Shown: positions 1 to 15,421, counted from the stretch's first letter. The stretch: DNA of 18,884 nt from an uncultured Alphaproteobacteria bacterium (GCA_944392815.1 CALXXY010000010.1:1-18884); one strand, 5' to 3'. The notes: generated by a model not told the origin, from the letters alone. Numbers and translations are program-made.

Positions 1-1514
1 ACCGTCACAGGTTTAATTTTCCCATCGCGTGGGTCAACCATACCGCGCAAATCAGCAAAATGAAAATCAGAATGACTGGTACGATTGCGCACAGCCGCAT
101 TGCGGAAAATGGACAGACCCTCCATCACGGTGGAAATAATGGAACCGCGTTCTTTGTCGGGCGTGTTTGCCAATTGCGTCAATTCAGAAACACATCTGTG
201 GGAATATGAATATTGGCGCGCTTCGTCCACGGCGGCGATGAACAAATCATGCATTGGGTCGGCCAACGCCACCATTTGATCACCGGCGCGACGGCGTTCC
301 TCCATTTCCTGGGCCATAGATACCTGGCTGGTGGTAATCCAATCCAAAATCATGGACAGTGATGCTTCGTGTCCAATCCATGCGTCTGGAATTTTATCCC
401 ATGTACCAATGTGCACATAATTCATCGCGTTTAATTCGCCGCGTTGCAACATGGAATACGCCGCATACGCATTCGGGTCATTCATCATAGACAGGTAATA
501 ATCCCCCAGCACGGCGGCATCTTCGGCATCAAATGCGCCGGACGAAATTCGTGCATAAAAATAATCGTCGGCCTTGGCACGTTCCACTTTGGACACAATA
601 AATTGCACCAACCCAGACAACGCCGCGCGCCCAGATATTGTCCAGTGCGGATCCGCAGACGATGATTCTTTGTCCGGAATTAACACGTTGCACATGGAAT
701 CGATATACAAATCGCGCTGTTCGGGGTTAAACGGCACATGTTCCGGCGACAGCGGATTCCACGATGGATAATAAATCCCGCGTTCTGGGTCGTCCTGACC
801 CGCCCAGTTCATAATAAACACCGGCCCCACAGTCGAACGATATGCGGACGATGATTGGTACAATTCGGGCTTTGGGTCATTTATAATCATCGATACATTG
901 TTGCATTCGAATATTGTTGGCAACACGACGCCATATGTTTTACCAGTCCCCGGGGGCGCAACGCATAACGCAGACAAACATTCGTTCATCATTAATGGCT
1001 TTTTCTTGAAATACCCCAAAACCATCATGAAACCCTTTAACAGACCCATTTTTTCGATGTCTTCCTTGGACGCCTTGTTGGACGATTTGTCATCGAATTT
1101 ATCGTTGCCGTACGGGTTGAATTCCTTGATTAACGTGCTGTCAGCCATAAAGAAATACGCGATAATCGGCAACAATGGCACCATGCACATGATATCAGTC
1201 CGCAACAACGTGCGCATGAACCAGGCCGGAACCTCGGCCAATATGGACATGCCACCACTGGTTAACATATTTTGGAAATACAGCACAGTCCATTGCTGGG
1301 TTGCCGGTGACCACCCCGCGCGCCAAATGTGTTCAATCCAGAACGATAAACCAAACGCAGCCGCGCACACCAACCAAATACCCACCGCCCATCGCAGCGA
1401 CCAAAACAGCGACGCCATGGGGGTGCGCAAACTTTCTTTGTATGCGGTGGATTTAAAGATATTTAAACCTTTGCCTTTGCCACCTGCGGATAAAATCTTG
1501 AACTTTTCGACCAT
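1..1514 (-). CDS. virD4: VirD4/TraG-family type IV secretion coupling protein (3' end lies beyond the window's left edge)
   Basis: Manually translated stop-free minus-strand frame from ATG at 1514 to position 1 (504 full codons): MVEKFKILSAGG..., N-terminal hydrophobic segments, Walker A APPGTGKT followed by YGVVLPTI (936-959), SMIINDPKPEL, SWNPLS, DPHW, and RGSIISTVMEGLSIFRNAAVRNRTSHSDFHFADLR...PVTV. All are typical VirD4 motifs. It is not in the ORF track, presumably because no stop codon falls in the window. Confidence 0.9.
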   Translation of the reverse strand, partial: MVEKFKILSAGGKGKGLNIFKSTAYKESLRTPMASLFWSLRWAVGIWLVCAAAFGLSFWIEHIWRAGWSPATQQWTVLYFQNMLTSGGMSILAEVPAWFMRTLLRTDIMCMVPLLPIIAYFFMADSTLIKEFNPYGNDKFDDKSSNKASKEDIEKMGLLKGFMMVLGYFKKKPLMMNECLSALCVAPPGTGKTYGVVLPTIFECNNVSMIINDPKPELYQSSSAYRSTVGPVFIMNWAGQDDPERGIYYPSWNPLSPEHVPFNPEQRDLYIDSMCNVLIPDKESSSADPHWTISGRAALSGLVQFIVSKVERAKADDYFYARISSGAFDAEDAAVLGDYYLSMMNDPNAYAAYSMLQRGELNAMNYVHIGTWDKIPDAWIGHEASLSMILDWITTSQVSMAQEMEERRRAGDQMVALADPMHDLFIAAVDEARQYSYSHRCVSELTQLANTPDKERGSIISTVMEGLSIFRNAAVRNRTSHSDFHFADLRGMVDPRDGKIKPVT

Positions 1515-1523
1515 TGTGTTATG

Positions 1524-1552
1524 ATTATATCAGAAATTTACACGATTATAAA
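1524..1552. promoter_or_regulatory. Divergent promoter region virD4/rsmE; extended -10 (TGaTATAAT) on the minus strand
   Basis: 56-bp AT-rich gap. Minus-strand TATAAT at 1524-1529 (preceded by TGA) and again at 1545-1550; plus-strand TATAAA at 1547-1552 overlaps the second. Confidence 0.5.
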
Positions 1553-1570
1553 TCAGAATTAAAAAAGTTT

Positions 1571-2230
1571 ATGAAAAATATCCCGCGTGTATTTTTGGGC
1601 GACAGTATTGTGTCTGGTATATCAATGCCGGCACCACGTGATGTGGCGCATTATTTAACGCACGTTATGCGCCGGCACGATTTTTTGGCGTTTGGTGGCG
1701 GGGCTGAATATAACGCGTCTGTATCAGATGACGGCAAAACAATATTAATCGGTGACAAAACGCCCCATGCTGACCCGTCAAACGATATTACATTGCTGTT
1801 TTCACCGATTAAAAAAACAGATGATTTATTAAACATGGCAACCCAATTGGGTGTTGCTGCATTTCAGCCGGTAATAACGGGTCGCACCGTTGCGCAACAT
1901 ATAAATTGGGCGCGTATGGAAAAAATAGTGACGGAAAGTGCCGAACAGTCCAACCGCAACAGTGTGCCAAAAATTTTGCCAATAAAAAAATTTGATGAAA
2001 TTGATTTATCGCACATCGTCTTTGCCGATGAACGCGCCGCATATGGTGCAGAATTGCCAACCGCCGCCCGCGGTGCGAAATATATATTCATCGGGCCCGA
2101 GGGCGGATTCACCGACACCGAATTTGCCGCATTTGACGCGGCCGGTGCCACGGGCATTTCATTGGGCAAAACAATTTTGCGTGCGGAATTGGCCGCCGCA
2201 ATTGCAATCAGCCGGGTGAAAAATGACTGA
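1571..2230 (+). CDS. rsmE: 16S rRNA m3U1498 methyltransferase RsmE
   Basis: HYLTHVMR, ATQLGV, ESAEQSNR, IFIGPEGGF and SLGKTILRAELA motifs. Start moved from 1514 to the ATG at 1571 (MKNIPRVF) to avoid overlap with virD4. Confidence 0.93.
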   Translation: MKNIPRVFLGDSIVSGISMPAPRDVAHYLTHVMRRHDFLAFGGGAEYNASVSDDGKTILIGDKTPHADPSNDITLLFSPIKKTDDLLNMATQLGVAAFQPVITGRTVAQHINWARMEKIVTESAEQSNRNSVPKILPIKKFDEIDLSHIVFADERAAYGAELPTAARGAKYIFIGPEGGFTDTEFAAFDAAGATGISLGKTILRAELAAAIAISRVKND

Positions 2231-2921
2231 ACGTATTGCAAAATTCATAGCGGGCACTGGATTTGCGTCGCGCCGTGACGCGGAAAGGTTAATTGCCGCC
2301 GGCCGCGTGACGATTAATGGCGCGCGTGTGGATACCCCAGTCACGTTTGTAAATGAAAATGATGAAATCGCTGTAGACGGCGTGCCGCTGCATGCACACG
2401 AAAAAATAAAATTATACGCATTTCATAAACCAGTCGGCACAATGACAACGTCGCGCGACCCAGAACACAGAAAAACTGTTTATGATGTATTGGACGCGCA
2501 GTACAAAAATTTAAAATATGTTGGCCGGTTGGATTATAATACATCTGGATTGTTGCTGATGACGAATGACGGCGATTTGGCACGCAAATTGACTTTGCCA
2601 TCATCAAATATTTCACGCACATATATCGCGACTGTATCACGCACAGATGACAACGGATTAAATCGTGCGCGTCGTGGCGTGACGGTTCGCGGCATAAAAT
2701 ACAGACCTATGCAAATTGACGTGATTCAAAAAAATGTTTTGCGCGTCACCGTGACCGAGGGTAAAAAGAATGAAATCCGCATAGTCCTGCGGGCGTGTGG
2801 TTGTCCTGTGACGAAATTACACCGCATATCGTTCGGCCCAATCCAGTTGGGAAATTTATCTGTTGGAAAAATTCGTGAAATTAATCAGAAAACAATTGAC
2901 GCATTGTTAAAAACTCTCTAA
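2223..2921 (+). CDS. rluB: RsuA/RluB-family rRNA pseudouridine synthase with S4 domain
   Basis: ERIAKFIA..G.ASRRDAE S4 domain, HKPVG, VGRLDYNTSGLLLMTNDG (catalytic Asp), EGKKNEIR, LHRISFGPI. 8-nt overlap with rsmE. Confidence 0.85.
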   Translation: MTERIAKFIAGTGFASRRDAERLIAAGRVTINGARVDTPVTFVNENDEIAVDGVPLHAHEKIKLYAFHKPVGTMTTSRDPEHRKTVYDVLDAQYKNLKYVGRLDYNTSGLLLMTNDGDLARKLTLPSSNISRTYIATVSRTDDNGLNRARRGVTVRGIKYRPMQIDVIQKNVLRVTVTEGKKNEIRIVLRACGCPVTKLHRISFGPIQLGNLSVGKIREINQKTIDALLKTL

Positions 2922-2924
2922 TAT
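2896..2924 (+). promoter_or_regulatory. Putative sigma70 promoter for the TPR gene
   Basis: TTGACG-17 nt-TAATAT overlapping the end of rluB; GAGGGAG ribosome-binding site at 2937-2943. Confidence 0.55.
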
Positions 2925-2950
2925 TCAAATATCACCGAGGGAGATTTATC

Positions 2951-3937
2951 ATGAAAAAACAAACCGCCAAAAAGAATTCAACCACGTCCAAACGGGCCGC
3001 GCCCGCTGTGCGTGCAACAAAAAACGCATCTGCGAAATCATCGTACAGTCCGTGGTCAATATCTATTTATGTTTATTGGTTCATAATTTTGTTCTTTATC
3101 GCGGCAACGTTTTATATCCTGGGGCGCAGCCACAGCACATGTATTGATACCGCCACCAACAATGTCGAAATAACAGAAGAGGCATTATTACAACCCGTCG
3201 ATTATTACACAAATGCACGTGATAAATTGTTGGCGGGCAATACCACTGACGCAATCGCAGATTTAACAACGGCGATTGACGCGGGCAATGCCACGGCCGA
3301 CATGTACGTCCTGCGGGGCGAGGCATACATGCAAAACGCGGATTATCGCAACGCACTGATGGATTTCAATTCCGCCCTGGAAATAGACCAGGTTAATGCA
3401 GTCGCATATTATGACCGCGCACTGTTAAATATCAGATTAGAAGATTATAACACAGCATTGTCCGATATAAACAATGCGTTGGCGGCGCAAACGGCAAAAC
3501 CATCGGACGTGTTGCAAATGCGTGATTTGTATGCAAAACGCGGTCAATTAAACCTGTGGCTGAAAAATTGGCAGGGCGCGGTTGCGGACTATACAAATTC
3601 ACTTGCCCGACCCGAGGGTACAGTCGACCACTCCGCATACGCCAACCGGGCCGAGGCATACACCCAAATGGGTAATTACGCCGACGCAATAAATGATTAC
3701 GCCACGGCCATTCGGATTATTTCCGAACAGATTCAGGGTGCAACAACCGACTCCGCGCGTGAAAATTTATCCAGCAGTGCCATGACATATTTTGAAAAAT
3801 CAGCGGCGCTGAACCTGGCCAACGGCAACACGGTCGCCGCCCGCAGCGATTTGGATTCTGCGTACACAATTGCGGCCGCGTTAATGGACACCGCCAGCAT
3901 GGACAGAATTCAAAACATGATTAATGAATTAAGTTAA
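2951..3937 (+). CDS. Membrane-anchored tetratricopeptide-repeat protein
   Basis: Lys/Ala-rich N-terminus, one TM helix (ISIYVYWFIILFFIAATFYILG), then repeated TPR signatures (YVLRGEAYMQNADYRNALMDFNSAL, AYYDRALL, AYANRAEAYTQMGNYADAINDY). Confidence 0.85.
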   Translation: MKKQTAKKNSTTSKRAAPAVRATKNASAKSSYSPWSISIYVYWFIILFFIAATFYILGRSHSTCIDTATNNVEITEEALLQPVDYYTNARDKLLAGNTTDAIADLTTAIDAGNATADMYVLRGEAYMQNADYRNALMDFNSALEIDQVNAVAYYDRALLNIRLEDYNTALSDINNALAAQTAKPSDVLQMRDLYAKRGQLNLWLKNWQGAVADYTNSLARPEGTVDHSAYANRAEAYTQMGNYADAINDYATAIRIISEQIQGATTDSARENLSSSAMTYFEKSAALNLANGNTVAARSDLDSAYTIAAALMDTASMDRIQNMINELS

Positions 3938-3954
3938 GAATAAAAAACGATAAT

Positions 3955-3983
3955 AAAAAATCCCGCGATGCGGGATTTTTTTT
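3955..3983. terminator. Bidirectional intrinsic terminator between the convergent TPR gene and fabZ
   Basis: AAAAAA-TCCCGC-gat-GCGGGA-TTTTTTTT. Confidence 0.85.
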
Positions 3984-4434
3984 ATACCTGTTTATCCAAC
4001 GGATTGTGTGAATCCATAATGGCTGTGAATGTGGCCTCGGATACTTTTTTGCCACTGACCATAGCGATACCGTGGAACTTATACAAACGCATTTTGGACA
4101 TGATTAATTCAACATGCAATTCCAAAACGTCGCCTGGCTTTACAAAATGTGAAAATTTGATTTTTTCCATTGTTGTAAAATACCCCAGCGTTTTCCCATC
4201 GTTCACACCCATACGCGCCAACGCGATAAAACATGCAGTTTGGGCCAGGGCCTCGATAGTCAATACGCCGGGCATAATTGGATTACCCGGGAAATGCCCG
4301 GCACACCAAAATTCATCATCGCGAACGTATTTGATACCAACACCACTTGTTTCATTGTATTCGCGAATTTCATCAACCAATCGCATAGCCCCACGATGAG
4401 GTATGACTTTTTCAATACCTTTTGCGTCTATCAT
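3982..4434 (-). CDS. fabZ: 3-hydroxyacyl-ACP dehydratase FabZ
   Basis: IPHR..MRLVD and GHFPGNPIMPGVLTIEALAQ (catalytic His/Glu), VKPGD; lies after lpxD; GGAG RBS. Confidence 0.95.
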   Translation of the reverse strand: MIDAKGIEKVIPHRGAMRLVDEIREYNETSGVGIKYVRDDEFWCAGHFPGNPIMPGVLTIEALAQTACFIALARMGVNDGKTLGYFTTMEKIKFSHFVKPGDVLELHVELIMSKMRLYKFHGIAMVSGKKVSEATFTAIMDSHNPLDKQV

Positions 4435-4445
4435 TTATACTCTCC

Positions 4446-5489
4446 TTAATTTTTTGCATTTTTGCGCAACCAAGCGTAATGGCGCATAAATTCAGTCCCA
4501 GGCCCCGCCGGATATCCCATGTGGCGTGCACCGTCTGGCACATTTCTGAATACACCGCTGTGGGCGCCAACCTCGGCATCATTGCCGATATGAACGCCGT
4601 TTGCAATTCCAACCTGGCCCGCCAATAACGCGCGGTCGCCAATAACAGTCCCGCCGGCCAAACCAACGCCAGACGCCAAAAAGCATTCCGAACCCACCAC
4701 GACGCCGTGCGCAATTTGACACAAGTTATCTATTTTAGTCCCGTCGCCAATGCGTGTGTCTGTCATCGCGCCGCGATCAATGCATGTGTTTGCACCAACA
4801 GATACGCGATTGCCAATCACCACGCGCCCAACGTGCGGAATAAACACGTTGTGCCCGTTTTGCCGGGTGTATCCAAATCCGTCTTTGCCAATAACAGCGC
4901 CGGCATTTATCACACAGTCCGCGCCAATGGTTGCGTTTTCAATATGTGCGCCCGTTTGAATAATTGTATTTGCACCAATCGTCACATTGCGCCCAATAAA
5001 TGCACCCGGATAAATTTTCACGTTTTCTTCGATAACTGCACCACGTTCGATGGTTGCGTATTGTCCAACATACACGGTTGTGCGTCGCCGGAAAAACACA
5101 CCCCGTTCCACAGTCGCGCGCCGGCTGATACCGAAACGCGGTGGTTCGCGGTAAATTTCGCCCAGTATTTTTACAATGTTTCCGCGCGGGCTGTCCGTAA
5201 TCAACAGCGTTGCGCCACGTGGCGCATTTTGTGCCTGTTCCGGTTGCACCAATATCACAGACGCGCGCGTGTTTTTTAATACCGCGATTGGCAGAATTTT
5301 AAACGCAGAACTGTTTTGTTCAGTCGAATAAAATGCCAACTGACCCGGGCGTGCGTCCGCAATCGGGGCGACGCCGCGGATAACAGTATCCGCATTTCCA
5401 CGTAATTCCAGACCGAATTTTTCGGCCAACTGGCCGGCTGTTGTTTGTGTGGCCGCCGGCATGAACCAAGATTTAATTTTGTTTAACAT
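4446..5489 (-). CDS. lpxD: UDP-3-O-acyl-glucosamine N-acyltransferase LpxD
   Basis: Hexapeptide repeats, IGKDGFGY, IPHVGRVVIG, GANTCIDRG, GTKIDNLCQIAHGV (catalytic His), GYPA. Start set at ATG 5489 because the longer ORF start overlaps the upstream terminator. Confidence 0.93.
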   Translation of the reverse strand: MLNKIKSWFMPAATQTTAGQLAEKFGLELRGNADTVIRGVAPIADARPGQLAFYSTEQNSSAFKILPIAVLKNTRASVILVQPEQAQNAPRGATLLITDSPRGNIVKILGEIYREPPRFGISRRATVERGVFFRRRTTVYVGQYATIERGAVIEENVKIYPGAFIGRNVTIGANTIIQTGAHIENATIGADCVINAGAVIGKDGFGYTRQNGHNVFIPHVGRVVIGNRVSVGANTCIDRGAMTDTRIGDGTKIDNLCQIAHGVVVGSECFLASGVGLAGGTVIGDRALLAGQVGIANGVHIGNDAEVGAHSGVFRNVPDGARHMGYPAGPGTEFMRHYAWLRKNAKN

Positions 5490-5495
5490 ACCGGG

Positions 5496-5501
5496 ATTAT
5501 A
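5496..5501 (-). promoter_or_regulatory. -10 element (TATAAT) just upstream of lpxD, possibly a leaderless transcript
   Basis: Minus strand reads TATAAT-cccggt-ATG with no Shine-Dalgarno; it lies downstream of the skp terminator. Confidence 0.45.
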
Positions 5502-5527
5502 TCCGTTTTTTTTGAAATTAAAAGCAT

Positions 5528-5555
5528 AAAAAACACCGCCCAAATCGGGCGGTGT
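5528..5555 (-). terminator. Intrinsic terminator after skp
   Basis: 9-bp stem ACACCGCCC/GGGCGGTGT (5533-5541/5547-5555), 5-nt loop, followed by a T-run on the minus strand. Confidence 0.75.
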
Positions 5556-5570: not shown

Positions 5571-6236
5571 TTAAAAACCCTGTGGTGTGTCCATTTTTAC
5601 TTTGGATACTTTTTTATCCAACGCAGAAATCACTTCGTTTGTGATATCCAAATTGGCTGCATTTTGACCCAAGCGTGTGAAACGACCGTCAATAACCATG
5701 GACAGATCTTTCTTAGCAATCACACCCTCGATAATTGGATCCAGATGTTTTTCCTGGACTTCGTTCAATGCTTTTTGGAACGACACTTCGATGCTTTGTG
5801 CGCGTTCTGTCAAATCGCGTTGCAATTCAGTCACGCGATTTTGATAATCAACGATACGACGTTGCAATGCGTCACGGGACAAAACGTCCTGGGATTCTTC
5901 GATTTCAGTTTTTTCTTCTTCTAATTCTTTTTGTCTGGATTCCAATTCATCGCGCAGTTTGTCCTCGTATTTGGCGCGCTGTGCGGATAAATCTTTTAAC
6001 ACAGCGGCCTGGGTTTGAATTGCGTCCATACGGATAACTGCGATGCGCAAATCGGCGGCATTCGCGGCGTCAGTTGTGACAACCTGCAGTGCTTCTTCTG
6101 CGGAAACAGTTTTTTCACCGCGCAACGCAGACAGCCCCCAAATGCCCAGTGCCGCAACCACGACAACAGCAACGGCAATAATGCCATATTTTACGTATTT
6201 TTTCCCAGCCGAACTGGATTGATTTTTGTTTGCCAT
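5571..6236 (-). CDS. skp: OmpH/Skp-family periplasmic chaperone
   Basis: IAVIRMDAI start strand, long charged coiled coil, LSMVID and LDITNEVISALD end motifs; upstream of lpxD-fabZ; AGGGG RBS before ATG 6236. The N-terminal hydrophobic segment is long. Confidence 0.85.
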   Translation of the reverse strand: MANKNQSSSAGKKYVKYGIIAVAVVVVAALGIWGLSALRGEKTVSAEEALQVVTTDAANAADLRIAVIRMDAIQTQAAVLKDLSAQRAKYEDKLRDELESRQKELEEEKTEIEESQDVLSRDALQRRIVDYQNRVTELQRDLTERAQSIEVSFQKALNEVQEKHLDPIIEGVIAKKDLSMVIDGRFTRLGQNAANLDITNEVISALDKKVSKVKMDTPQGF

Positions 6237-6267
6237 AATTTCCCCTTTTTTTATTTTATACACGGGC

Positions 6268-6276
6268 AGTATAACA
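6268..6276 (-). promoter_or_regulatory. Extended -10 promoter element for skp
   Basis: TGtTATACT on the minus strand in the AT-rich gap upstream of skp. Confidence 0.45.
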
Positions 6277-6314
6277 ATAAATTTTTAAAAATAAAAGTGA
6301 AAGTTATTCCGATT

Positions 6315-6989
6315 TTATCGCGCAGGCACCAAACGAATTTCCACGCGCCTGTTGGTCAGTCGCCCTATGTCGTCCTGGGCGGCGATGGGGCGTGTGGCCC
6401 CGCGTCCAACAATGAACATGCGTGCGGTGTTAATGCCGTGCTGGGACAAATACACGCCGACCCTTTGTGCCATGTCCAATGATAATGCGTCGGCCGCCGC
6501 CGCAGACATTGCGTCTGTATATCCAGCGATTTCCAAAAATGTTGCGTCATATTTTTTCAAAATTTTGGAAATAGTTTTCAACGTATCTGCACCATCTGCG
6601 GAAATATCGGCAACGTTTAATTCCATAATTGCGTCACGCACCAAAATCACAACAACATCAGTGCCTGCGCGCTGGACAGAAATTCCGGGCTTGCGCAATG
6701 CGTCATATAATTCATATTCCAAATTCGCCATGTAATTGACACTGGTGGCGGTATCGTTTTGAACCTTGTCCCCGTATTGGGCCGCCGCCGGCGTATCCAC
6801 AGATGATATTAATTTCCCACCTGCACCCAAAAATACAGGCCGCTTTGCAATACGCGCTGTTTCCGTCATATCAGTAAAACTGGCGCCGCGCAGATAGTGT
6901 GACCATGTGTTTCGTGCAGGGCTGTGATACCGTATGCACCCGGTCAATAATATTACAGTTGATAAAATCGCGATATTATACGATTTCAT
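6315..6989 (-). CDS. OmpA-C-like domain lipoprotein (YiaD/Pal-like), degenerate peptidoglycan motif
   Basis: Lipobox LTGC at residue 18; LEIAGYTD, VGRGATRPIA and NRRVEI motifs; GGGG RBS. Confidence 0.85.
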   Translation of the reverse strand: MKSYNIAILSTVILLTGCIRYHSPARNTWSHYLRGASFTDMTETARIAKRPVFLGAGGKLISSVDTPAAAQYGDKVQNDTATSVNYMANLEYELYDALRKPGISVQRAGTDVVVILVRDAIMELNVADISADGADTLKTISKILKKYDATFLEIAGYTDAMSAAAADALSLDMAQRVGVYLSQHGINTARMFIVGRGATRPIAAQDDIGRLTNRRVEIRLVPAR

Positions 6990-6998
6990 ACGTCCCCA

Positions 6999-7460: not shown

Positions 7461-7477
7461 ATCATTCCCCCATATTT

Positions 7478-9025
7478 TTATTTTACGCCAACAATTTCCG
7501 CGTCCGCAAACAAATCCATTGCGCTGGCCACCAATGGATCAGATTCTAATTCTTCTTTTTTCTGTTCAGTAATGGTGTGCGCATGCGGTGATTCCGTCAT
7601 GCGTTCCAATGTCCATGCATGCCCAGTTTTATTTTCCAGCCACACCGACAATTTATGCGCAAAATCGGCATCGCCCCGTCTGTCATAATATTTAATGGTG
7701 TTGTTGGAAATTTCGACAACCTCCAGATTGCTGGTATAGTACGAATACAGCAAAATTTCTTTGGAATGTTGCAACGCGTTTGCCAAATCATTTGCGTTGT
7801 TGATTTCCAACATTTGCGTGTTTTGCTGTGTTGCTGCCGCGGGCGCAGCGACTGGGGCTGGCGCAGATTGTGGCGCATTTGATTGCTGTTGTTTTAATAT
7901 ATCCGCCACAGATGGCATATCGGCAATATGCATCAAACGTATAACCAACATATCAAAGCATTGCTTTTGATTTCCAGACGCCTGCATTTCAGGCACGGCC
8001 GCCACCATAACCTGCCATATGCGTGACAGAGTATTCAGTGACACACGTGCATCGATTTTTGCAATTTGTTCACGTTGATCCGCGGTATATGGGGAATTAG
8101 TCACCTGGCCGGCGCGAATGGCCGGGTGCATACGCGTTGCCCAATGTGTCCATTCCATCATATCGGTCAACAGCATGGACAAATCGGCACCATTATTGTA
8201 AATTTCGTCCACTTTGGCCAATGCCGCGGCCGTATCCCCGGACAATAAAGTTTCCATAAAGCCAACAACAACCCCGCGGTCGGCGCGCTTTAACATGGCC
8301 AACACCGCCGCTTCGTCAACATGCCCGCCCGTTTGCGCAATTGCCTGGTCCAACAAAGACAATCCGTCACGCACAGACCCATCGGCCGCCCGCGCCAGCA
8401 ATTCATTTGCGCCATCGGTTAATTCAATTTTTTCCTGTTCGGCAATCCATGCGAAATGCTTTTTCAGTGTTTCCACAGGCACACGCACCAAATCAAAACG
8501 TTGGCACCGAGATAAAATAGTGACCGGTACTTTGCGTATTTCGGTTGTCGCCAAAATGAACACGACGTGTTCTGGTGGTTCCTCGAGTGTTTTCAGCAAC
8601 GCATTAAACGCCGGCACGGATAACATGTGCGCTTCGTCGATAATGTAAATTTTATAACGTCCATTTGTCGGGCGATATTGCGCAGTATCCAAAATATCAC
8701 GCATATTATCCACGCCCGTATGTGACGCAGCGTCGATTTCCATAACGTCAATATGTTGGCCGGCTGCAATTGCGCGACAGTTTTCGCACACGCCGCATGG
8801 CGTTGCCGTTGGGCCATCGGACGATAAACAGTTTAATGCCTTGGCCAATATGCGGGCGGTACTGGTTTTCCCAGTTCCACGAATGCCGGTAAAAATATAC
8901 GCGTGTGCAATGCGGCCGGTATTGATTGCGGTGGTCAAAGTTTTGACCAACACGTCCTGGCCAATCAAAGAATTAAAATCCTGGCTGCGATACTTGCGTG
9001 CTAAAACTGTGTAATTGCTGTCCAT
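7478..9025 (-). CDS. dnaX: DNA polymerase III subunit gamma/tau
   Basis: LARKYR, Walker A GIRGTGKT, Zn motif C...PCGVCENC, EIDAAS, IIDEAHML, NALLKTLEEPP, TILSRCQRF, GSVRDGLSLLDQ; AAGGAAG RBS before ATG 9025. Confidence 0.97.
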   Translation of the reverse strand: MDSNYTVLARKYRSQDFNSLIGQDVLVKTLTTAINTGRIAHAYIFTGIRGTGKTSTARILAKALNCLSSDGPTATPCGVCENCRAIAAGQHIDVMEIDAASHTGVDNMRDILDTAQYRPTNGRYKIYIIDEAHMLSVPAFNALLKTLEEPPEHVVFILATTEIRKVPVTILSRCQRFDLVRVPVETLKKHFAWIAEQEKIELTDGANELLARAADGSVRDGLSLLDQAIAQTGGHVDEAAVLAMLKRADRGVVVGFMETLLSGDTAAALAKVDEIYNNGADLSMLLTDMMEWTHWATRMHPAIRAGQVTNSPYTADQREQIAKIDARVSLNTLSRIWQVMVAAVPEMQASGNQKQCFDMLVIRLMHIADMPSVADILKQQQSNAPQSAPAPVAAPAAATQQNTQMLEINNANDLANALQHSKEILLYSYYTSNLEVVEISNNTIKYYDRRGDADFAHKLSVWLENKTGHAWTLERMTESPHAHTITEQKKEELESDPLVASAMDLFADAEIVGVK

Positions 9026-9048
9026 GGTGTAAACTTCCTTTTGGCCAC

Positions 9049-9076
9049 AGCATAGCAAAACACAGTAAAAATTCAA
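9049..9076 (-). promoter_or_regulatory. Putative sigma70 promoter of the dnaX-pilin-ompA unit
   Basis: Minus strand TTGAAT-16 nt-TATGCT, with TG extended -10. Confidence 0.45.
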
Positions 9077-9106
9077 GGGTTAAAGTTGCGCCCCCGCACG
9101 GAAAAA

Positions 9107-9415
9107 TTATTTTTCATTCATGATGAAATCAGGCAGTGTTGCGTCGTCTTCATCAGTTGTGTCCACTGCGTCAGCCGTATCGACAATTTCCTCTATATTT
9201 GGTGTTTTGTCGCCGCCCCCACGGGTGGAATCTATTTTGCCCTGTTCGGCATTAACAATGCGGCCATAATGTTCGGCGGCCTGCATTAAACGTTCGCGTT
9301 CAATTTCGTCGGACGTTTGGCGCGCCTGGTCCATGTATTGTTTTCTTTTCTGACGCCATTTATGACAGCGCTGAATCATCTGTCCTACGGACGATTGGTT
9401 TTTCTTGTTTTGCAT
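9107..9415 (-). CDS. DUF4167-like protein
   Basis: YMDQARQTSDEIERERLMQAAEHYGRIV matches the alphaproteobacterial DUF4167 'Q.AEHY.RI' motif; acidic tail. Start uncertain (9415 chosen). Confidence 0.7.
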   Translation of the reverse strand: MQNKKNQSSVGQMIQRCHKWRQKRKQYMDQARQTSDEIERERLMQAAEHYGRIVNAEQGKIDSTRGGGDKTPNIEEIVDTADAVDTTDEDDATLPDFIMNEK

Positions 9416-9490
9416 ATTCGTTTTATTTGTTTTTATAATCAGGAAATAATTCGGCAACGATTTTTAATTCGTTCCCATTCAACATCGCGA

Positions 9491-9542
9491 ATGATAAAGC
9501 ATCTTAAAACTGATTGCAATATTTTTTTTCAATTGCTATTAT
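9491..9542. promoter_or_regulatory. Symmetric bidirectional sigma70 promoter with shared palindromic -35 (TTGCAA)
   Basis: TTGCAA at 9514-9519. Plus strand: 17 nt, then TGcTATTAT (-10 at 9537-9542). Minus strand: 17 nt, then TATCAT (9491-9496). Confidence 0.55.
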
Positions 9543-9569
9543 CCTTCAGTGTAGGAGGGTGATTGAAAT

Positions 9570-10931
9570 TTGTCGCGTCAAAATGGAAACTTTTTACTGC
9601 AGGCATTATTGGCGCTGACGCTGATATTTTCATTTATCCCGTTTTTTGCCGGACGATTGGCTGCGCGTGATATGGATTCGCAAATGTATGCGTCCACCCA
9701 AAAAATCGAGGTTGCCCAAACAGCAGCGCGCATTTTTATCCGTGAACGTGCGAACGATTTGCCATATAACACAACGGTCGTGTCCGGCAATAATTTTTCT
9801 GATTTACTGGAATCATACGGATTGCCGTTGGGGTTTATTCCGCGTACCGCACTGGGCCAGGATATTTCCCTGGTTATAAACAAAACACCAATTGCAGTCA
9901 CGGCATATTTGCGGATATCGGGCGGCGATTTGTCGGCTGTCCAGTTGGCGGAATTGGCGCGTCGCGTTGGTTTTTATGCGACTGTGTCGGGGTCTGAAAT
10001 AAATGTTGGGTTGGCGTTGGACGCCGGGTATTCAGATGTTGTTCGCCGCAACGAAACAGATTTGGATAACAGTGCGTTTTTAACGGATTTGGACATGGGT
10101 GGTTTTTCTTTTACCAGGGGCGGACAAATATTCGCACGTCGCGGCGAATTTGATACGGCGCAATTTGGAACTTTATCAATCTTTGGTACCGAAGATGGCC
10201 GCAAAACGCGCAGTAATATCGAAGATATGGCCGCAAACATGGCCGTGTTTCAAAGTGGACTGGGTGAATCGGCGTTGTCATTAACGCGCGGTTCGTTATA
10301 TGTTGGTAATATTTCGGCGCGTACATTGTCTATGTTTGGCGACACGGGGAATTTTACATCAAATGCGGCCGCAGCATATGATTTTGCAATGACGGCCGGC
10401 CGCACGAGTTTTTCAGGTCCCCTGGAATGGACTGTTGGCGGTGACGTTATCAGTGAAAATATAAATTTCAGCGTTGAACGTTTGGATATCGAATCATATA
10501 TTGACGCGTCCCGTGGCCAGGACGTATACATTGACCCCGACGAATTATCTGTGTCGTCACGTACCGGTATTGAAACAGGCACATTAATTGCGTCAAATGT
10601 CACCATGCGCGACCAAACGTCCGACGCATTAAATAATGGCGAAACAGGTTTGGTGATTTTGGACATTCGCCCCGCTGGGACATCTGTGTTGCCCGATGTT
10701 TTGTTGGACACAATCAGCAATGACGGATTTAAAATTCTGGACGACCCGTCGGATTCGGGCGATAAAACGGTAAATTGTCGTGATATCATTGCCGAAATGG
10801 ATAATCACACGCGGTACAACGCGCGTTCTTTGGCACAGTATTTGGTGTGCCAATATGTGTTTTGGCAACGGTTGGAACAACGCATAGATATAAAACAATG
10901 TTTGTTGGACGGGCGCAGTGACTGTAAATAA
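9570..10931 (+). CDS. PilV(shufflon N-terminal)-like large minor pilin 1, non-canonical (Gln at +5)
   Basis: TTG start after an AGGAGGG RBS; MSRQNG|NFLLQALLALTLIF; PilV-constant-region-like AARIFI...LESYGLPLGF..RTALGQ and RRNETDLDNSAFLTDLDMGG; beta-rich stalk; four Cys in the C-terminal ~55 aa. Confidence 0.65.
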   Translation: MSRQNGNFLLQALLALTLIFSFIPFFAGRLAARDMDSQMYASTQKIEVAQTAARIFIRERANDLPYNTTVVSGNNFSDLLESYGLPLGFIPRTALGQDISLVINKTPIAVTAYLRISGGDLSAVQLAELARRVGFYATVSGSEINVGLALDAGYSDVVRRNETDLDNSAFLTDLDMGGFSFTRGGQIFARRGEFDTAQFGTLSIFGTEDGRKTRSNIEDMAANMAVFQSGLGESALSLTRGSLYVGNISARTLSMFGDTGNFTSNAAAAYDFAMTAGRTSFSGPLEWTVGGDVISENINFSVERLDIESYIDASRGQDVYIDPDELSVSSRTGIETGTLIASNVTMRDQTSDALNNGETGLVILDIRPAGTSVLPDVLLDTISNDGFKILDDPSDSGDKTVNCRDIIAEMDNHTRYNARSLAQYLVCQYVFWQRLEQRIDIKQCLLDGRSDCK

Positions 10932-10932
10932 A

Positions 10933-12123
10933 ATGAAATTTTTTTCAAATTCTGAACGTGGCGCCAGCATGTTGGAAGTTTTGCTGGCCATGGCGATTGT
11001 TGCCATGGCAACCCCGTTTTTATACAGTCAAATTGCAGATACCAATGATACATTGCGCGATATGGCTGTCGCGAATGAAATTACAGATTTGCGCGACCCG
11101 GTGTTGAATTTTGTCCGTTTGAATCAGGGCGATTGGCCGGCCACTGCGCAGATAAAATTATCAGACGACGAATTGAATGAAATATCCGAAATGCCAACCG
11201 CCGGATTCATAGATAAATATACAGTGCGTGGTGCTACTATGACGGACGTATATTTGGCATTTGATATTGATGACACAGAATTGCGCACCAATCAAATCGC
11301 GCGCCACATTGGTGCGGACGCGGCCGTTGTTGGTGCGGACGGCATTGCATACGGGCGTGCATGGGCGGTGGCGGCGCCTGATTTTAAACCCGGTGATTTG
11401 ATATACAGAATATCGCGCGACATATCGGGCCAGGATAAAACCCAATACCTGCACAGAACTGAAACAGGCGAAGAAAACCTGAACATGATGCTGCGTGATT
11501 TGAATATGAACAATAATCGCGTGTATGATGTTGGTGGCGTGTTGGCGGATTCCGCCGAAATACGTGGTGCGGCCGCCCAGTTTGTTGACACGCCCCGCCT
11601 GACGGCGGACACACTGTATTTTTCATCTGGCGCGAATTTGGACGGCGATGTGGCGAATTTTGGTTCTATGCGTGTGACGGGTGATATATCAGGATTTCGT
11701 AATATTTACGCCGATACATTAAACGGCCGCACATATACAACCCAGGGTCGAATAATAACCGATCGTGCCACGGTATTAAATTCCGTGAACGTGGGGAATA
11801 ATTTGGAATTAAAATCGGATTCTGCGCGCACCATCAGTGGATTTACTGGTATCACGGCACACACGGTATTAACATCGTATCTGTCAACCGAAGAAATTAT
11901 ATTCTATGATAATTTCGGCCTGACCGTATCGGGCGAATTGCTGTATTCGACAACTGTTCCAATCAGAATAGGGCGTTGGTCATTCCCGTCATACACGCCG
12001 CCCCAGTTTGCTGAATTGCACCTGGACAGGGCAACGGTGCCACCCGCCCCGTCTGCGTCTGAATTTGATGCGATTATGTCATCTGATTGGGAAACGGCCA
12101 GACCAGTGGAAATAACGCAATGA
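10933..12123 (+). CDS. PilV(shufflon N-terminal)-like large minor pilin 2
   Basis: ERG|ASMLEVLLAMAIVAM class III signal; AYGRAW and YLHRTETGEENLNMMLRDLNMNNNRV resemble the PilV constant-region 'LYR...LN.M.T.IDMG.N' motif; ATG 1 nt after the previous stop. Confidence 0.75.
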   Translation: MKFFSNSERGASMLEVLLAMAIVAMATPFLYSQIADTNDTLRDMAVANEITDLRDPVLNFVRLNQGDWPATAQIKLSDDELNEISEMPTAGFIDKYTVRGATMTDVYLAFDIDDTELRTNQIARHIGADAAVVGADGIAYGRAWAVAAPDFKPGDLIYRISRDISGQDKTQYLHRTETGEENLNMMLRDLNMNNNRVYDVGGVLADSAEIRGAAAQFVDTPRLTADTLYFSSGANLDGDVANFGSMRVTGDISGFRNIYADTLNGRTYTTQGRIITDRATVLNSVNVGNNLELKSDSARTISGFTGITAHTVLTSYLSTEEIIFYDNFGLTVSGELLYSTTVPIRIGRWSFPSYTPPQFAELHLDRATVPPAPSASEFDAIMSSDWETARPVEITQ

Positions 12124-13436
12124 AAAAATGGAACAGAATTTTTACAGGTCACAAATCGAATCAGCGTGGCGCAATGCTGGTTGAATTGCTGATGAGTGTT
12201 GCGTTGGCCGCAATCATAATGCCGTTTATTTTCCGATATCAGCAAAGCATTGCTGTCCGTGCCGAAAACATCGCAATCACGCGCGACATGTCGGAAATCC
12301 AGGACGCATTGGAACGCTATATTTTGGATAACCGCGAATTGTTGCTGAACACAGTCGGCCGTAATATCACGCGTGTTAATATGTCTGATTTGATTGAATA
12401 CGGATTGAACCCTGATTTATCAGATAATGACGATTATCAATTGCGCGTATTGAAATCAAACGATATCGACGACAGGGCCACTTTACAGGGTGTCATAGTT
12501 TTTTCGTCTGATGAAATTAATCCTATGCGCACACGCGAAATTGTGGCAATGGGCGGCGACGAAATGGGTTTTATCGAAGGCAACCGTGCATACGGCACAT
12601 TCGGTGCATGGCGTGCAGATACTTTGGATATGGGGCTGGACGTGACGGACGGCATTGTTGAAACCACATCGGTCAATCGTGATAATGCGTTGTATTTATA
12701 TCGCGTGCCAACGGATAATGCATCTGATGCGATGATGTTGTCGGGATTGAACCTGGGCGGGCACGATATAACGAACGCAGCGTTTTTTGACGCGTCATCT
12801 GCGGAATTTGGTGAAACATTGACCATGGGCGTTGCGGTTGCGGACGACGTAATTTTTCAAAATCGTACAACATTGGACAATTTGCTGAACGTGGCCAGTG
12901 CAACTGTATCGGGCATTTTATCATCAGATTCCAGAACGATGGAGGTTGCGCGTAATTTCTCTCTGGCGGATACAGGAAAATTCACCAGTTTAACAACAGG
13001 TGACCTGTATGTATCAAATATGACATTGGGGGGATTATCAATCAATTCGGATTTGGACGGCCCAGCATTGTTGAATGTGAATCGATCTGTTGATATGACG
13101 GGCGGCACAATTGACGCAATGTTCGTGACGGTTGGATTTGCAGGGTCAATAACACCACGCCTGGTTGTGTACGACAGAATCGAAGATTCCAATAACCCCG
13201 CATATTTTTGGGACCTGAATGCATCAGTTGCCAACATGTTCGACATTACTTTGCAAAATTTAACCGATTTGGCCCAGTTGGCGGTTGCCTATGAAAACGC
13301 GTCCAACACAGAATCAGGCAAAATATTCGGCGCGGTTGCCGCAAACAATAACGCCACAGTGTCTGATTACATGAACGCCATATCGGAAATCCAGGCGCGC
13401 GTGCGCGCAAAATATCGGTTGTTGAATTTGGAATAA
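12120..13436 (+). CDS. PilV(shufflon N-terminal)-like large minor pilin 3
   Basis: QRG|AMLVELLMSVALAAII class III signal; ALERYI...MSDLIEYGL, AYGTFGAW and YLYRVPTDNASDAMMLSGLNLGGHDITN; ATGA overlap with the previous gene. Confidence 0.78.
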   Translation: MKKWNRIFTGHKSNQRGAMLVELLMSVALAAIIMPFIFRYQQSIAVRAENIAITRDMSEIQDALERYILDNRELLLNTVGRNITRVNMSDLIEYGLNPDLSDNDDYQLRVLKSNDIDDRATLQGVIVFSSDEINPMRTREIVAMGGDEMGFIEGNRAYGTFGAWRADTLDMGLDVTDGIVETTSVNRDNALYLYRVPTDNASDAMMLSGLNLGGHDITNAAFFDASSAEFGETLTMGVAVADDVIFQNRTTLDNLLNVASATVSGILSSDSRTMEVARNFSLADTGKFTSLTTGDLYVSNMTLGGLSINSDLDGPALLNVNRSVDMTGGTIDAMFVTVGFAGSITPRLVVYDRIEDSNNPAYFWDLNASVANMFDITLQNLTDLAQLAVAYENASNTESGKIFGAVAANNNATVSDYMNAISEIQARVRAKYRLLNLE

Positions 13437-13456
13437 TTTGTGGTATAAAACATCAT

Positions 13457-13966
13457 ATGAAAACAGTATGTGATTTTTGCAAAACAGAATATTCATTGGA
13501 CGCGATTCCGACCGGACCGGTGAAATGCGCAGTGTGTGGTCATACCTGGGTTGTGCCACGTCCCCAGCGTCGTAATTCAATATTGGTATTCATTGCGGCA
13601 CTGTGCGCGTTAATGGCGGCGTGTGTGTTTGCGGTGGCGGTTATGTACAAACACAGGGTGACGGAAATTCAAACCCACCCGTTAATTGCGGAAATTGGCG
13701 ATATAACAACGGACGTTGACGACAGCGGTACAATGCACTTTGTGGTCAGTGGCCGCGTGGTTAATCGTTCAGACCAGATTTATGGTGTGCCCGGACTGGT
13801 TGTGATTTCATATGACGCAAATGGTGCGGTTATCGATAAACAGCGATTTTTACCGCCGGCAACTTTGTTGGACGCGGGCGACAATGCTGGATTTATGCAC
13901 ACTTTGTCCGTGCCGGTCGACAATGTTGAAAAAATAGCCGTCGAATTGGAAACCCAGGGGGACTGA
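13457..13966 (+). CDS. Zinc-ribbon (MJ0042-type) + TM + DUF3426-like protein, ZitP-like architecture
   Basis: CDFC-x16-CAVCGHTW zinc ribbon, TM helix (ILVFIAALCALMAACVFAVAVMY), then a beta-rich domain with VSGRVVN and VPGLVVISYDANG typical of DUF3426/FxLYD-like folds. Confidence 0.7.
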   Translation: MKTVCDFCKTEYSLDAIPTGPVKCAVCGHTWVVPRPQRRNSILVFIAALCALMAACVFAVAVMYKHRVTEIQTHPLIAEIGDITTDVDDSGTMHFVVSGRVVNRSDQIYGVPGLVVISYDANGAVIDKQRFLPPATLLDAGDNAGFMHTLSVPVDNVEKIAVELETQGD

Positions 13967-13967
13967 T

Positions 13968-14462
13968 ATGAAACGCATATTTACTGCTGTGATTTGTGGC
14001 GTTATGTTTATTGCCGGCGCATATGCAGCCGACGCCCCAACCCAGGGTGGCGGTGGTGACGCGCCCGCCCCACAACCACGCATCAGCATTTTTTCCACCA
14101 GCACCGATTGGCAGGCATTAACCGGCCTGCGTTATTCGGAATATCGTGGCGAATTCATTCCATCATCTGGAATTGTCGGACGTGGATTGGTGCTGTATTA
14201 TCTGGACGGATTTCCATGTTATGGCCTGGGCGAAGGGGTCCGTGTCTGGATTGGCCCCAATAATAAACACGAAGGCGAACTGCGCCTGGCGTGCATATAC
14301 GCCCCAACCGAAATAAAATTTACATGGCGCAACGCCGCCCGTGACGCAGACCAGGCACAAAGTACCGGCATTTTAACATGCCCGGTTGAATCGTCTGGCC
14401 GTGAATTAACCATAGATTTATCCGATTGTGAAAAGGGCCCCGATTGGGACGAATACAAATAA
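13968..14462 (+). CDS. Small secreted hypothetical protein
   Basis: Sec signal ending AYA|A, Gly/Pro linker, four Cys in the mature domain; GGGGG RBS; tightly packed between its neighbours. Confidence 0.7.
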   Translation: MKRIFTAVICGVMFIAGAYAADAPTQGGGGDAPAPQPRISIFSTSTDWQALTGLRYSEYRGEFIPSSGIVGRGLVLYYLDGFPCYGLGEGVRVWIGPNNKHEGELRLACIYAPTEIKFTWRNAARDADQAQSTGILTCPVESSGRELTIDLSDCEKGPDWDEYK

Positions 14463-15421
14463 TGACAGATACACGCCATTTTGTTGTTTCTGATGAATTC
14501 GCGTCTGTGCGTCTGGATAAATTTTTGGTCGCGCAAATTCCTGAATTGACCCGCAGTGAAATCCAACGTTGCACAGTCACACTGAATGACGCGCCGGCCA
14601 AATTTGGCGCACGTTTGCGGGTTGGGGATAAAATTGCCGTGACAATACCCGAACAAAAAACTTTTGTGGCGGCGGCCAATATCGCGTCCGATTTTGATCT
14701 GGATATTTTATTCGAAGACGATGATATAATCGTCATCAACAAACCGCGTGGCGTGGTTATGTACCCATCGGCCGGCAATAATACGGGCACACTGGTGCAA
14801 AACATATTGGCGCATACGCATTTGTCTGCGCTGGGGGGCGACGTGCGCCCAGGGGTTGTTCATCGCCTGGACAGGGATACCAGTGGCGTTATGGTGTTCG
14901 CCAAATCGGACGCAGCATTTCGCGGATTGGTAAAAATATTTTCTGCGCACGATTTGACCAGAAAATATATCGCGTTTGTTTGGGGCGTGCCGAATTGGGA
15001 CGGTGCGGACATTACAGGGAACATTGCGCGTTCATCACGCAATCGCCAAAAAATGAGCATGGTGAAATCAGGTGGCAAACCTGCGCACACAATTGTAAAC
15101 GTGGCGGACGTTTGGCCGCGCGCGGGCGTGTCGGAATTTCGCTGTACATTAATGACTGGGCGCACCCATCAAATTCGTGTGCATTTATCGGCGCATGGAT
15201 TTCCAGTTTTGTGCGACCCGCTGTATGGTCGTGCGTCAAATCGCATGGCGTCTGTGCGCGACGGGGAATTATTGGAATTTTTAAAAACACACAACGGACA
15301 AATGCTGCACGCGGAAATTTTGGATTTCACGCACCCTGTGACGGGCGAAAAACTGCATTTCAAAGCGCACATGCCGCCCGACATGGCCGAATTAAAATCG
15401 ATATTGGACGATATTGGATAA
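14462..15421 (+). CDS. rluD: RluA/RluD-family 23S rRNA pseudouridine synthase
   Basis: S4 domain RLDKFL, INKPRG, PGVVHRLDRDTSG, TGRTHQIRVHL, DPLYG, QMLHA..L.F.HP; TAATG stop/start overlap at 14460-14464. Confidence 0.9.
   Translation: MTDTRHFVVSDEFASVRLDKFLVAQIPELTRSEIQRCTVTLNDAPAKFGARLRVGDKIAVTIPEQKTFVAAANIASDFDLDILFEDDDIIVINKPRGVVMYPSAGNNTGTLVQNILAHTHLSALGGDVRPGVVHRLDRDTSGVMVFAKSDAAFRGLVKIFSAHDLTRKYIAFVWGVPNWDGADITGNIARSSRNRQKMSMVKSGGKPAHTIVNVADVWPRAGVSEFRCTLMTGRTHQIRVHLSAHGFPVLCDPLYGRASNRMASVRDGELLEFLKTHNGQMLHAEILDFTHPVTGEKLHFKAHMPPDMAELKSILDDIG

Follow-up and report, generated by a model that had tools for sequence, protein, structure and literature searches.

Type IVb thin pili built from PilS and PilV are known from IncI-type plasmids and from integrative and conjugative elements (ICEs). 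In R64-type systems, recombination of one pilV gene gives alternative C-termini. The ICE-type islands PAPI-1 and SPI-7 are contiguous, mobile and strain-specific, and the large minor pilins TcpB and CofB are encoded by single genes and act as homotrimers. According to excerpts of two publications, plasmid- and ICE-borne PilS/PilV pili serve cell-cell contact (PMC9045228, PMC5297154), and the PAPI-1 pilus recognises the lipopolysaccharide of the recipient (PMC5297154). Here we analyse a window of 18,884 nucleotides from an uncultured alphaproteobacterium (GCA_944392815.1, CALXXY010000010.1:1-18884; positions are counted from its first letter), in which virD4, one PilS-like and three PilV-like genes stand among housekeeping genes. 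It is likely that these genes belong to a chromosomally fixed R64/IncI-type type IVb thin pilus, with one PilS and three ancient PilV tip proteins, and to the VirD4 of a scattered VirB-type type IV secretion system (T4SS) in Candidatus Enterousia. This interpretation, in which we have good confidence, takes in a mechanism that would run from peptidase to tip, a heterotrimeric tip and descent from one mobile module.

The window is the entire contig C10 of a chicken-gut source genome of 927,230 bp (18 contigs, 96.8% complete). Its close relatives are metagenome-assembled genomes from the gut of chicken, ruminants and humans, named 'Candidatus Enterousia', among them one closed chromosome of 958,618 bp. 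NCBI taxonomy lists Candidatus Enterousia as Alphaproteobacteria incertae sedis, and GTDB places the genus Enterousia in the order Rs-D84 (PMC12306168). A metagenome search with the DNA of 6900-13500 found it in gut samples of nine studies, chicken predominating. The genes at issue are the following.

3-1514, minus strand: virD4, N-terminal 504 aa (PF02534); open at the contig end
6999-7460, minus strand: PilS-like type IVb major pilin, 153 aa (hhalign, type IVb fold)
9570-10931, plus strand: PilV-like minor pilin 1, 453 aa (hhalign, class III signal)
10918-12123, plus strand: PilV-like minor pilin 2, 401 aa (hhalign); alternative ATG start at 10933
12120-13436, plus strand: PilV-like minor pilin 3, 438 aa from ATG (hhalign); open frame from 12087

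A PilS-like pilin and its assembly machinery

The 153-aa pilin carries a class III signal, defined as Gly at -1 and Glu or Gln at +5 followed by a hydrophobic helix. Its leader MIHERG is followed by ASMIE, with Gly at -1 and Glu at +5, and the protein has two conserved Cys residues. The leader comprises six residues (M-x-x-E-x-G), and the first mature residue is Ala or Arg among orthologues. A genome-wide pattern scan returned clean signals only at the four pilin ORFs of the window, plus one doubtful site on contig C2.

As PilS references we used seven major pilins encoded beside our PilV references on annotated plasmids. Profile-profile comparison with hhalign matched the 153-aa family to these plasmid pilins at 96.3% (E 1.6e-9, 146 columns). 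Because the N-terminal helix is common to all pilins, the comparison was also made with the leader and the first 30 mature residues cut from the profiles; the family then matched PilS at 91.8% (E 7.5e-7) and PilV at 0.1%, and every cross pair between the PilS and PilV types lay at or below 0.8%. An AlphaFold 2 (AF2) model of the pilin had a mean predicted local distance difference test score (pLDDT) of 78.2. When this model was searched with Foldseek, all 10 matches at E <= 1e-3 were type IVb pilins, headed by TcpA (E 3.3e-5, TM 0.71) and including CofA of enterotoxigenic Escherichia coli (ETEC; cryo-EM pilus 9iuf, crystal 3s0t), and Salmonella Typhi PilS (3fhu) matched at E 0.01. A search of Protein Data Bank (PDB) sequences with the pilin profile gave weak pilin matches only (E >= 0.016). 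The PilS-like label, which had been given to this gene in a reading of the sequence alone (hereafter the sequence-only reading), thus agrees with both the match to the plasmid PilS set and the type IVb fold.

The same reading had placed the ATPase, secretin, platform protein and peptidase elsewhere in the genome, and we indeed found them at three other loci. PilO, PilP, ATPase and platform genes lie in that order at C2:193478-198185 (minus direction). The PilO-family protein scores 50.7 bits with PF06864 (cut-off 26.7) and the PilP-family protein 36.7 with TIGR03021 (cut-off 34.65), both encoded at C2:196214-198185, and C2:193478-196190 encodes the 545-aa T2SSE ATPase and the 376-aa T2SSF platform protein. 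At C2:78073-75505, a TcpQ-domain protein (PilL/TcpQ) is followed by the secretin, whose best family is TIGR02520, the type IVB PilN family (236.7 bits, below the cut-off of 287.65). An A24 prepilin peptidase is encoded at C3:71388-72284 (PF01478, E 6.8e-14). Searched with tblastn against plasmids, the secretin retrieved 3008 PilN/BfpB records at 25-30% identity, 2496 of them on predicted conjugative plasmids. Annotated plasmid clusters hold TcpQ, PilN, PilO, PilP, ATPase, platform, major pilin and one or more large minor pilins, in an order that matches ours. Among NCBIfam models, GspE is the best for the ATPase (222.4 bits, against 192.1 for PilB) and GspF the best for the platform protein (76.5), all far under their cut-offs. 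An ordinary type IVa or type II secretion system (T2SS)-like system unrelated to IncI pili was also considered, and was dropped after the PilO, PilP, PilN-secretin and TcpQ matches.

Three PilV-like proteins and their predicted tip

PilV-like 1 starts at a TTG with AGGAGG upstream. Its signal, G/NFLLQ, has Gln replacing Glu at +5, a feature kept in orthologues, and its C-terminus is Cys-rich. The reference set comprised seven proteins, six of them annotated as shufflon-system tip adhesin PilV and one from Thalassospira, whose tblastn matches are PilV. Against this set, hhalign gave 96.1% for PilV-like 1 (E 2.8e-9, 264 columns), 98.5% for PilV-like 2 (E 2.3e-15, 294 columns; repeat run 98.5%, E 1.5e-15, 206 columns) and 98.7% for PilV-like 3, represented by a 449-aa family (E 2.7e-16), and the three families matched PilS at 0.6-30%. 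With the helix removed, the PilV matches were 85.9% (E 5.2e-6; PilS 0.8%), 97.0% (E 9.8e-11) and 97.6% (E 2.7e-12), respectively. The PilV constant-region motif is present in the 401-aa and 449-aa proteins when they are aligned with PilV. The PilV-like identity proposed for the three tandem genes from sequence alone was therefore recovered in comparison with the plasmid PilV set, both with and without the helix.

Structural evidence was obtained for the 401-aa protein. In its AF2 model, residues 40-170 form a long helix and a sheet at pLDDT 70-89, and the best VIA-align matches of this N-domain are TcpA, the ETEC type IVb pilin and E. coli PilM (Z 6.3-6.7). The C-terminal half is of low confidence and looks beta-helix-like (Z 5-6.3), and TcpB is among the weak structural matches to the model. 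Foldseek returned nothing at E <= 1e-3 for this model, a PDB sequence search with profile A1 gave 0 matches, and hhalign of profile A1 with one Salmonella 520-aa minor pilin gave a probability of 1%.

No shufflon-like repeat family was found in 9000-14600, and no recombinase domain in the ORFs of the window (Rci was not searched genome-wide). The C-terminal halves of the PilV-like proteins are well conserved, not hypervariable. Exactly three large tandem PilV-like genes were found at 9/9 loci from nine genomes of five other families, and some of these loci link the trio to rluD or to skp-lpxD-fabZ. In a quick maximum-likelihood tree of 36 Rs-D84 and 4 plasmid PilV proteins, the Rs-D84 proteins group by gene position: the position label requires 3 changes, the minimum possible, as compared with a mean of 21.2 after shuffling (0/200 shuffles as low), and the Rs-D84 proteins are separated from plasmid PilV with a Shimodaira-Hasegawa-like approximate likelihood-ratio (SH-aLRT) support of 99. 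This is a quick search with long branches and weak support for the position-3 group. As read from the tree, the triplication is older than the split of the six sampled Rs-D84 families, and the three genes are predicted to be non-redundant.

The three genes are packed closely and are translationally coupled. PilV-like 2 starts either at a GTG 14 nt before the stop of PilV-like 1 or at an ATG 1 nt after it, and the ATG of PilV-like 3 overlaps the stop of PilV-like 2 (ATGA, 12120-12123). Such overlapping or abutting genes suggest equal co-expression. We then predicted a complex of the C-terminal parts (residues 165-453, 165-401 and 180-438), each with its alignment and with PilV-like 3 as the partner chain. 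The three-chain prediction scored 0.74 (runs 0.66, 0.77 and 0.74), and the best of three controls scored 0.30. A score of 0.74 is reached by 58 of 80 solved complexes and 2 of 110 mismatched pairs, a calibration that holds roughly for a prediction with custom alignments, three chains and paralogues, homotrimers lying outside the comparison. Contact agreement was at least 54% and partner pLDDT at least 64, with 1292-1612 interface contacts, and the predicted interface runs in register along chains 2 and 3. The model supports, without showing it, a heterotrimer of the three PilV C-terminal parts.

VirD4, inheritance and gene neighbourhood

VirD4 (3-1514) matches PF02534 at 74.2 bits (cut-off 20.1) and has a GTGKT P-loop at residue 189 and two transmembrane (TM)-like segments. 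Its best NCBIfam families are VirD4/TraG, all far under their equivalog cut-offs. The gene is cut by the contig start, and contig C7 ends with a weak match to the C-terminal part. Full-length VirD4 in relatives has about 705-795 aa, and the full-length orthologue of family f5 also has TraG-D_C and TrwB_AAD_bind, and hence the full coupling-protein domain set. Further secretion genes are scattered over the genome: VirB3-VirB4 at C6:3562-6279, VirB8-VirB9-VirB10 at about C1:254980-259765 beside yidC, and VirB11 at C1:117622-118617 beside ligA. The matches of VirB3, B4, B8, B9, B10 and B11 are all under equivalog cut-offs. The homologues of VirB9 and VirB10 (C1:250001-266000, 5668-9765), at 534 and 827 aa, far exceed the family models in length, and that of VirB10 shows a weak match to choice-of-anchor D close to the N-terminus. 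The sequence-only reading had associated these parts with IncI-type plasmids; this is correct for the PilS/PilV pilus, but the secretion system is of the VirB (P-type) kind and not I-type.

That reading had also called a functional link between VirD4 and the pilus unproven. In both f5 genomes examined, virD4, TcpQ/pilL, pilN, pilO, pilP and the ATPase and platform genes lie on one strand with gaps below about 130 nt, virD4 being the first gene of a pilL-N-O-P-Q-R operon, and in a genome of family f4 virD4 lies about 10 kb from the pil cluster. The link thus gains support from synteny. In two Enterousia species (L036 and L037, positions 1-1100), virD4 stands directly beside fabZ-lpxD, without the rsmE, rsuA-like and TPR genes, which indicates that the neighbourhood of virD4 has been rearranged within the genus. 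A single ancestral module, virD4-pilL...pilR, that was later broken up in Enterousia would fit the f5 operon.

The genes are inherited with the genome. The 401-aa PilV-like protein has matches in 41/41 relatives searched, with full-length orthologues at 51-76% identity in 24/24 other genomes of the genus and weaker matches in 16/16 genomes of five other families. At 25 Enterousia loci, the series skp, OmpA-like, pilin, dnaX, 116-aa ORF, PilV-like 1-2-3, zinc-ribbon, 164-aa, rluD and 1053-aa genes is kept in order and orientation as far as the contigs reach, 23 of them extending to the pilin gene. For each of the four pilin genes, pairwise distances correlate with dnaX distances (Spearman 0.68-0.82, the pairs being non-independent), at least as well as they do for rluD, skp and the OmpA-like gene (0.61-0.69), and the rate of change is about twice that of dnaX. 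VirD4 has one match in each of 120/121 genomes of the order (42-90% identity) and in 111/111 high-quality genomes. PF06864 (PilO) was detected in 88/121 genomes of the order, and 5/5 sampled misses hold a homologue at 59-79% identity, indicating that the misses are failures of sensitivity. No PF03432 relaxase was found in the source genome, and the 41 genus genomes gave one sub-threshold match (other relaxase families were not searched). Single-copy, syntenic genes that diverge together with dnaX point to a fixed and vertically inherited system. The genes are thus not patchy, recent transfer is very improbable, and they form part of the single-copy core of the clade, with VirD4 once per genome and the gene order kept.

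The trait extends beyond the order. Outside it, 35 of 298 sampled Alphaproteobacteria carry PF06864, many of them with genomes of 1-2.5 Mb (one positive being the unpublished genome G175), and profile A5 gave weak matches in 9/298 of these class genomes, which neither shows nor excludes relatives there. For several other alphaproteobacterial families, two members were sampled and both had PF06864, many of these genomes measuring 1.1-2.5 Mb (e.g. G173, G240, G241, G348 and G401). As judged from gene content and synteny, the pilus system appears fixed and vertically inherited in Rs-D84, yet not unique to that order within the class, and type IVb pili encoded in the chromosome may be more widespread among Alphaproteobacteria with small genomes.

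The other genes of the window are listed below.

1514-2230, plus strand: rsmE
2223-2921, plus strand: rsuA/rluB-like gene
2951-3937, plus strand: TPR protein gene
3982-4434, minus strand: fabZ (PF07977, E 2.4e-23)
4446-5543, minus strand: lpxD
5571-6263, minus strand: skp
6315-6989, minus strand: OmpA-family protein with a lipobox-like N-terminus (PF00691, E 2.8e-12)
7478-9076, minus strand: dnaX
9107-9457, minus strand: 116-aa ORF with weak DUF4167 and DUF6381 matches (E 0.0025-0.0037)
13457-13966, plus strand: zinc-ribbon/TM protein, 169 aa
13968-14462, plus strand: secreted 164-aa protein
14444-15421, plus strand: rluD
15481-18642, plus strand: 1053-aa Cys-rich protein

The fabZ gene completes the skp-lpxD-fabZ set; a plus-strand ORF at 3968-4399 is spurious, the true gene being fabZ on the opposite strand. 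The ATG of the pilin gene lies 17 nt past the dnaX stop, and that of the OmpA-like gene 9 nt past the pilin stop. As the sequence-only reading had it, the pilus and VirD4 genes are tightly joined to core genes, all four elements lying at the places claimed. Its statement that mobility genes and a compositional break are absent also agrees with our results: no Pfam mobility domain was found among the 18 window ORFs scanned and no tRNA in the window, and the GC content is 0.444-0.478 for the pilin genes and 0.49 for virD4, against a contig mean of 0.477.

The OmpA-family protein, whose gene adjoins the pilin gene in all 23 Enterousia loci that reach it, may have an accessory role, as may the 169-aa and 164-aa proteins between PilV-like 3 and rluD. 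The latter two have weak Zn_ribbon_4, MJ0042 and FxLYD matches and a position kept in Enterousia loci, and a homologue of the 164-aa protein adjoins rluD in family f3 (L057 and L064). The 116-aa ORF is basic/acidic and 52-83% identical across related loci. The 1053-aa protein has a signal-like N-terminal segment, hydrophobic C-terminal segments and no Pfam or NCBIfam match; its gene is kept 3' of rluD in 20 related loci and evolves at 2.25 times the dnaX distance, among the fastest of the block.

Proposed function and comparison with known systems

Taken together, we propose the following mechanism. The A24 peptidase would cleave the prepilins after the conserved Gly, and the ATPase and platform protein would polymerise the PilS-like pilin, to be extruded through the PilN secretin. 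Encoded by overlapping genes, the three PilV-like proteins would be produced at equal levels, and their beta-rich C-terminal halves would associate into a single heterotrimeric tip. This tip would prime assembly and attach to the partner's cell surface in the way that PilV attaches to recipients in plasmid mating, and the VirB/VirD4 system would then move substrates across the contact. The likely ancestor is one mobile-element module, which would have been kept in f5 as virD4-pilL-N-O-P-Q-R and split into at least five pieces in Enterousia. Rs-D84 genomes are uniformly small and lack amino-acid, nucleotide and lipid biosynthesis as well as respiration, and the order is predicted to consist of obligate symbionts or parasites (PMC12306168); pili and a secretion system go unmentioned for Rs-D84 in that study. 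In a lineage without biosynthesis, the pilus could serve to find a partner and hold on to it. Of the domesticated cell-capture and secretion apparatus envisaged in the sequence-only reading, the domesticated, fixed character of the parts is borne out; attachment to partner cells is suggested by analogy, and cell capture is still an inference.

Several observations weigh against this interpretation. Type IVb pilins typically have long leaders, so that the six-residue leader found here is unusual. Single-sequence searches fail, and homology rests on profile-profile comparison and fold search: the Pfam PilS model (PF08805) matches the 153-aa pilin at E 0.021 and 15.3 bits, below its cut-off of 22, no Pfam or NCBIfam model scores above cut-off on any of the three large proteins (PF04917 gives no match), and none of 72,556 plasmids searched with tblastn matched the 401-aa protein. 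The C-terminal half of the 401-aa model lies below pLDDT 50, its VIA Z-scores are all below 8, the level at which matches stand out, and the tip score carries the rough calibration given above. VirB6 was not found with PF04610 (VirB1, B2, B5 and B7 were not searched), a retraction ATPase was not found, the second of the genome's two T2SSE-family ATPases being VirB11-like, and virD4 adjoins the pil operon in one family only (two genomes). RNA support is weak. In one metatranscriptome library, small contigs at 95-98% identity cover 6920-7240 (the junction of the pilin and OmpA-like genes), parts of dnaX, and 12770-13063 (within PilV-like 3). These are assembled contigs from which no level, strand or transcript ends can be read, and the uncovered parts are uninformative; the contigs belong to a relative found in an RNA library and do not demonstrate transcription.

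The main rival is a competence filament, which would feed a nucleotide auxotroph with DNA through ComEC instead of attaching to partners. The source genome does encode ComEC (PF03772, E 2.7e-51), Rs-D84 lacks nucleotide biosynthesis (PMC12306168), and in the f5 genome G028 (L079, C4:24001-44000, 1331-3709) pilR is followed by a gene for a FabG-like short-chain dehydrogenase and then by a ComEC-like gene (PF03772, E 1e-40). However, ComEC is common, being present in 10/14 control genomes, the genome has no detected retraction ATPase, three large tip proteins are not obviously required for DNA binding, and the closest characterised PilS/PilV pili, of plasmids and ICEs, serve contact between cells in the excerpted sources (PMC9045228, PMC5297154). 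We therefore consider DNA uptake unlikely as the main role, though it is compatible with partner attachment. A somewhat better, if still doubtful, chance attaches to the idea that each of the three PilV-like proteins makes an alternative tip of its own, as homotrimer or monomer; together these tips would form a hard-wired substitute for the shufflon and widen the range of partners. The lack of shufflon-like repeats at the locus would suit this, and a structure model can lay paralogous chains together by likeness alone, the control with chain 1 replaced still scoring 0.30 with 1100 contacts. Against it stand the equal co-expression suggested by the gene overlaps, the retention of all three types, in unchanged order, by each of the genomes examined from six families with streamlined genomes, the conservation of the C-terminal halves and a heterotrimer score well above the controls.

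It is quite improbable that the genes encode a type II secretion-like pseudopilus, or a pilus like the toxin co-regulated pilus (TCP), whose main job is protein export through the secretin. GspE and GspF are the best NCBIfam models for the ATPase and platform protein, if far under cut-off, and one PilV-like protein lacks Glu at +5, as does GspK; yet the secretin, PilO, PilP, the TcpQ protein, the pilin fold and the PilV homology all indicate a type IVb pilus, and a GspD-type match is absent from the families listed for the secretin (GspC, GspL and GspM were not searched). Least credible of all is an ICE or plasmid that is still mobile and was acquired recently. It is true that the machinery has its closest homologues on plasmids, most of them predicted to be conjugative (2496/3008), and that the PilO family is patchy across the class (35/298 genomes outside the order). 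Yet the parts stand among housekeeping genes at no fewer than five loci, and they occur in single copy, with synteny kept over genus and order and with distances that co-vary with those of dnaX. The window shows neither a tRNA nor an integrase nor a GC break, and no PF03432 relaxase was found in the source genome.

A wider scenario can tentatively be drawn, which we regard as speculative and as having a lesser chance of being right. Rs-D84 could be an alphaproteobacterial counterpart of the Patescibacteria, that is, obligate epibionts or micropredators of gut microbes in which a conjugation module has become a capture-and-injection device. On the thin pilus, an obligate heterotrimeric PilV spike of three paralogues, already fixed when the families split, would replace the shufflon and recognise the partner surface, and the VirB system, with a coupling protein formerly co-transcribed with the pilus genes, would deliver or withdraw macromolecules. 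Enterousia/Rs-D84 bacteria are prevalent in the poultry, ruminant and human gut, and with genomes of about 0.9 Mb they are unable to synthesise amino acids, nucleotides or lipids; a conserved thin pilus of plasmid origin, joined by a T4SS, offers a concrete and testable mechanism for partner contact. It would also be a second example, beside Dot/Icm, of conjugation machinery fixed in a chromosome, the fixed part being in this case the mating pilus. In the literature searched on Enterousia/Rs-D84 and on PilS/PilV pili, we found no description of this system in Rs-D84, nor of a replacement of the shufflon by three fixed PilV genes with a possible heterotrimeric tip; a 2023 Enterousia paper (Microbiology 92:S50), which may list the genes, was outside the search.

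The closest known system is the thin pilus of IncI1, IncI2 and IncK plasmids (R64, TP114: pilL-pilV), which shares PilS, the PilV constant-region motif, PilL/TcpQ, PilN, PilO, PilP, the ATPase, the platform protein and the A24 peptidase, as well as the order from TcpQ to platform. In contrast to it, the Enterousia genes are chromosomal and spread over at least five loci, have three fixed pilV paralogues instead of a shufflon, encode a pilin with a six-residue leader, and accompany a VirB-type rather than an I-type T4SS, with no PF03432 relaxase found. The ICE-borne type IVb pili of PAPI-1 (Pseudomonas aeruginosa) and SPI-7 (Salmonella Typhi) are likewise of PilS/PilV type and chromosome-encoded, and the fold search retrieved S. 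Typhi PilS (3fhu); unlike these islands, the Enterousia genes are dispersed, fixed and core to the whole order. TcpB of the Vibrio cholerae TCP and CofB of the ETEC colonization factor antigen III (CFA/III) are large type IVb minor pilins of the same build, a pilin domain with extra C-terminal domains, and their major pilins TcpA and CofA are the top fold matches of the Enterousia pilin. Enterousia differs in having three paralogues, with a predicted heterotrimer, and C-terminal parts that look beta-helical in a low-confidence model.

For the secretion system, the rvh system of the Rickettsiales offers the same picture of a P-type T4SS scattered in islets between housekeeping genes of a reduced alphaproteobacterial genome. 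It belongs to another lineage, and in Enterousia virD4 does not follow virB11 and heads the pilus operon in f5, VirB6 is not detected, and VirB9 and VirB10 are unusually long. Saccharibacteria episymbionts, which are reduced and partner-dependent, bind host bacteria by type IV pili, as stated in an excerpt of one publication (PMC11623550); they belong to an unrelated phylum and their pili are not R64-type, so the analogy is functional only. The component families are thus all known. What is new is a fixed, fragmented chromosomal form of the pilus in a whole order of reduced gut bacteria, in which three ancient paralogues with a predicted heterotrimeric tip take the place of the shufflon, together with its pairing with a VirB system and the virD4-pil operon of f5.

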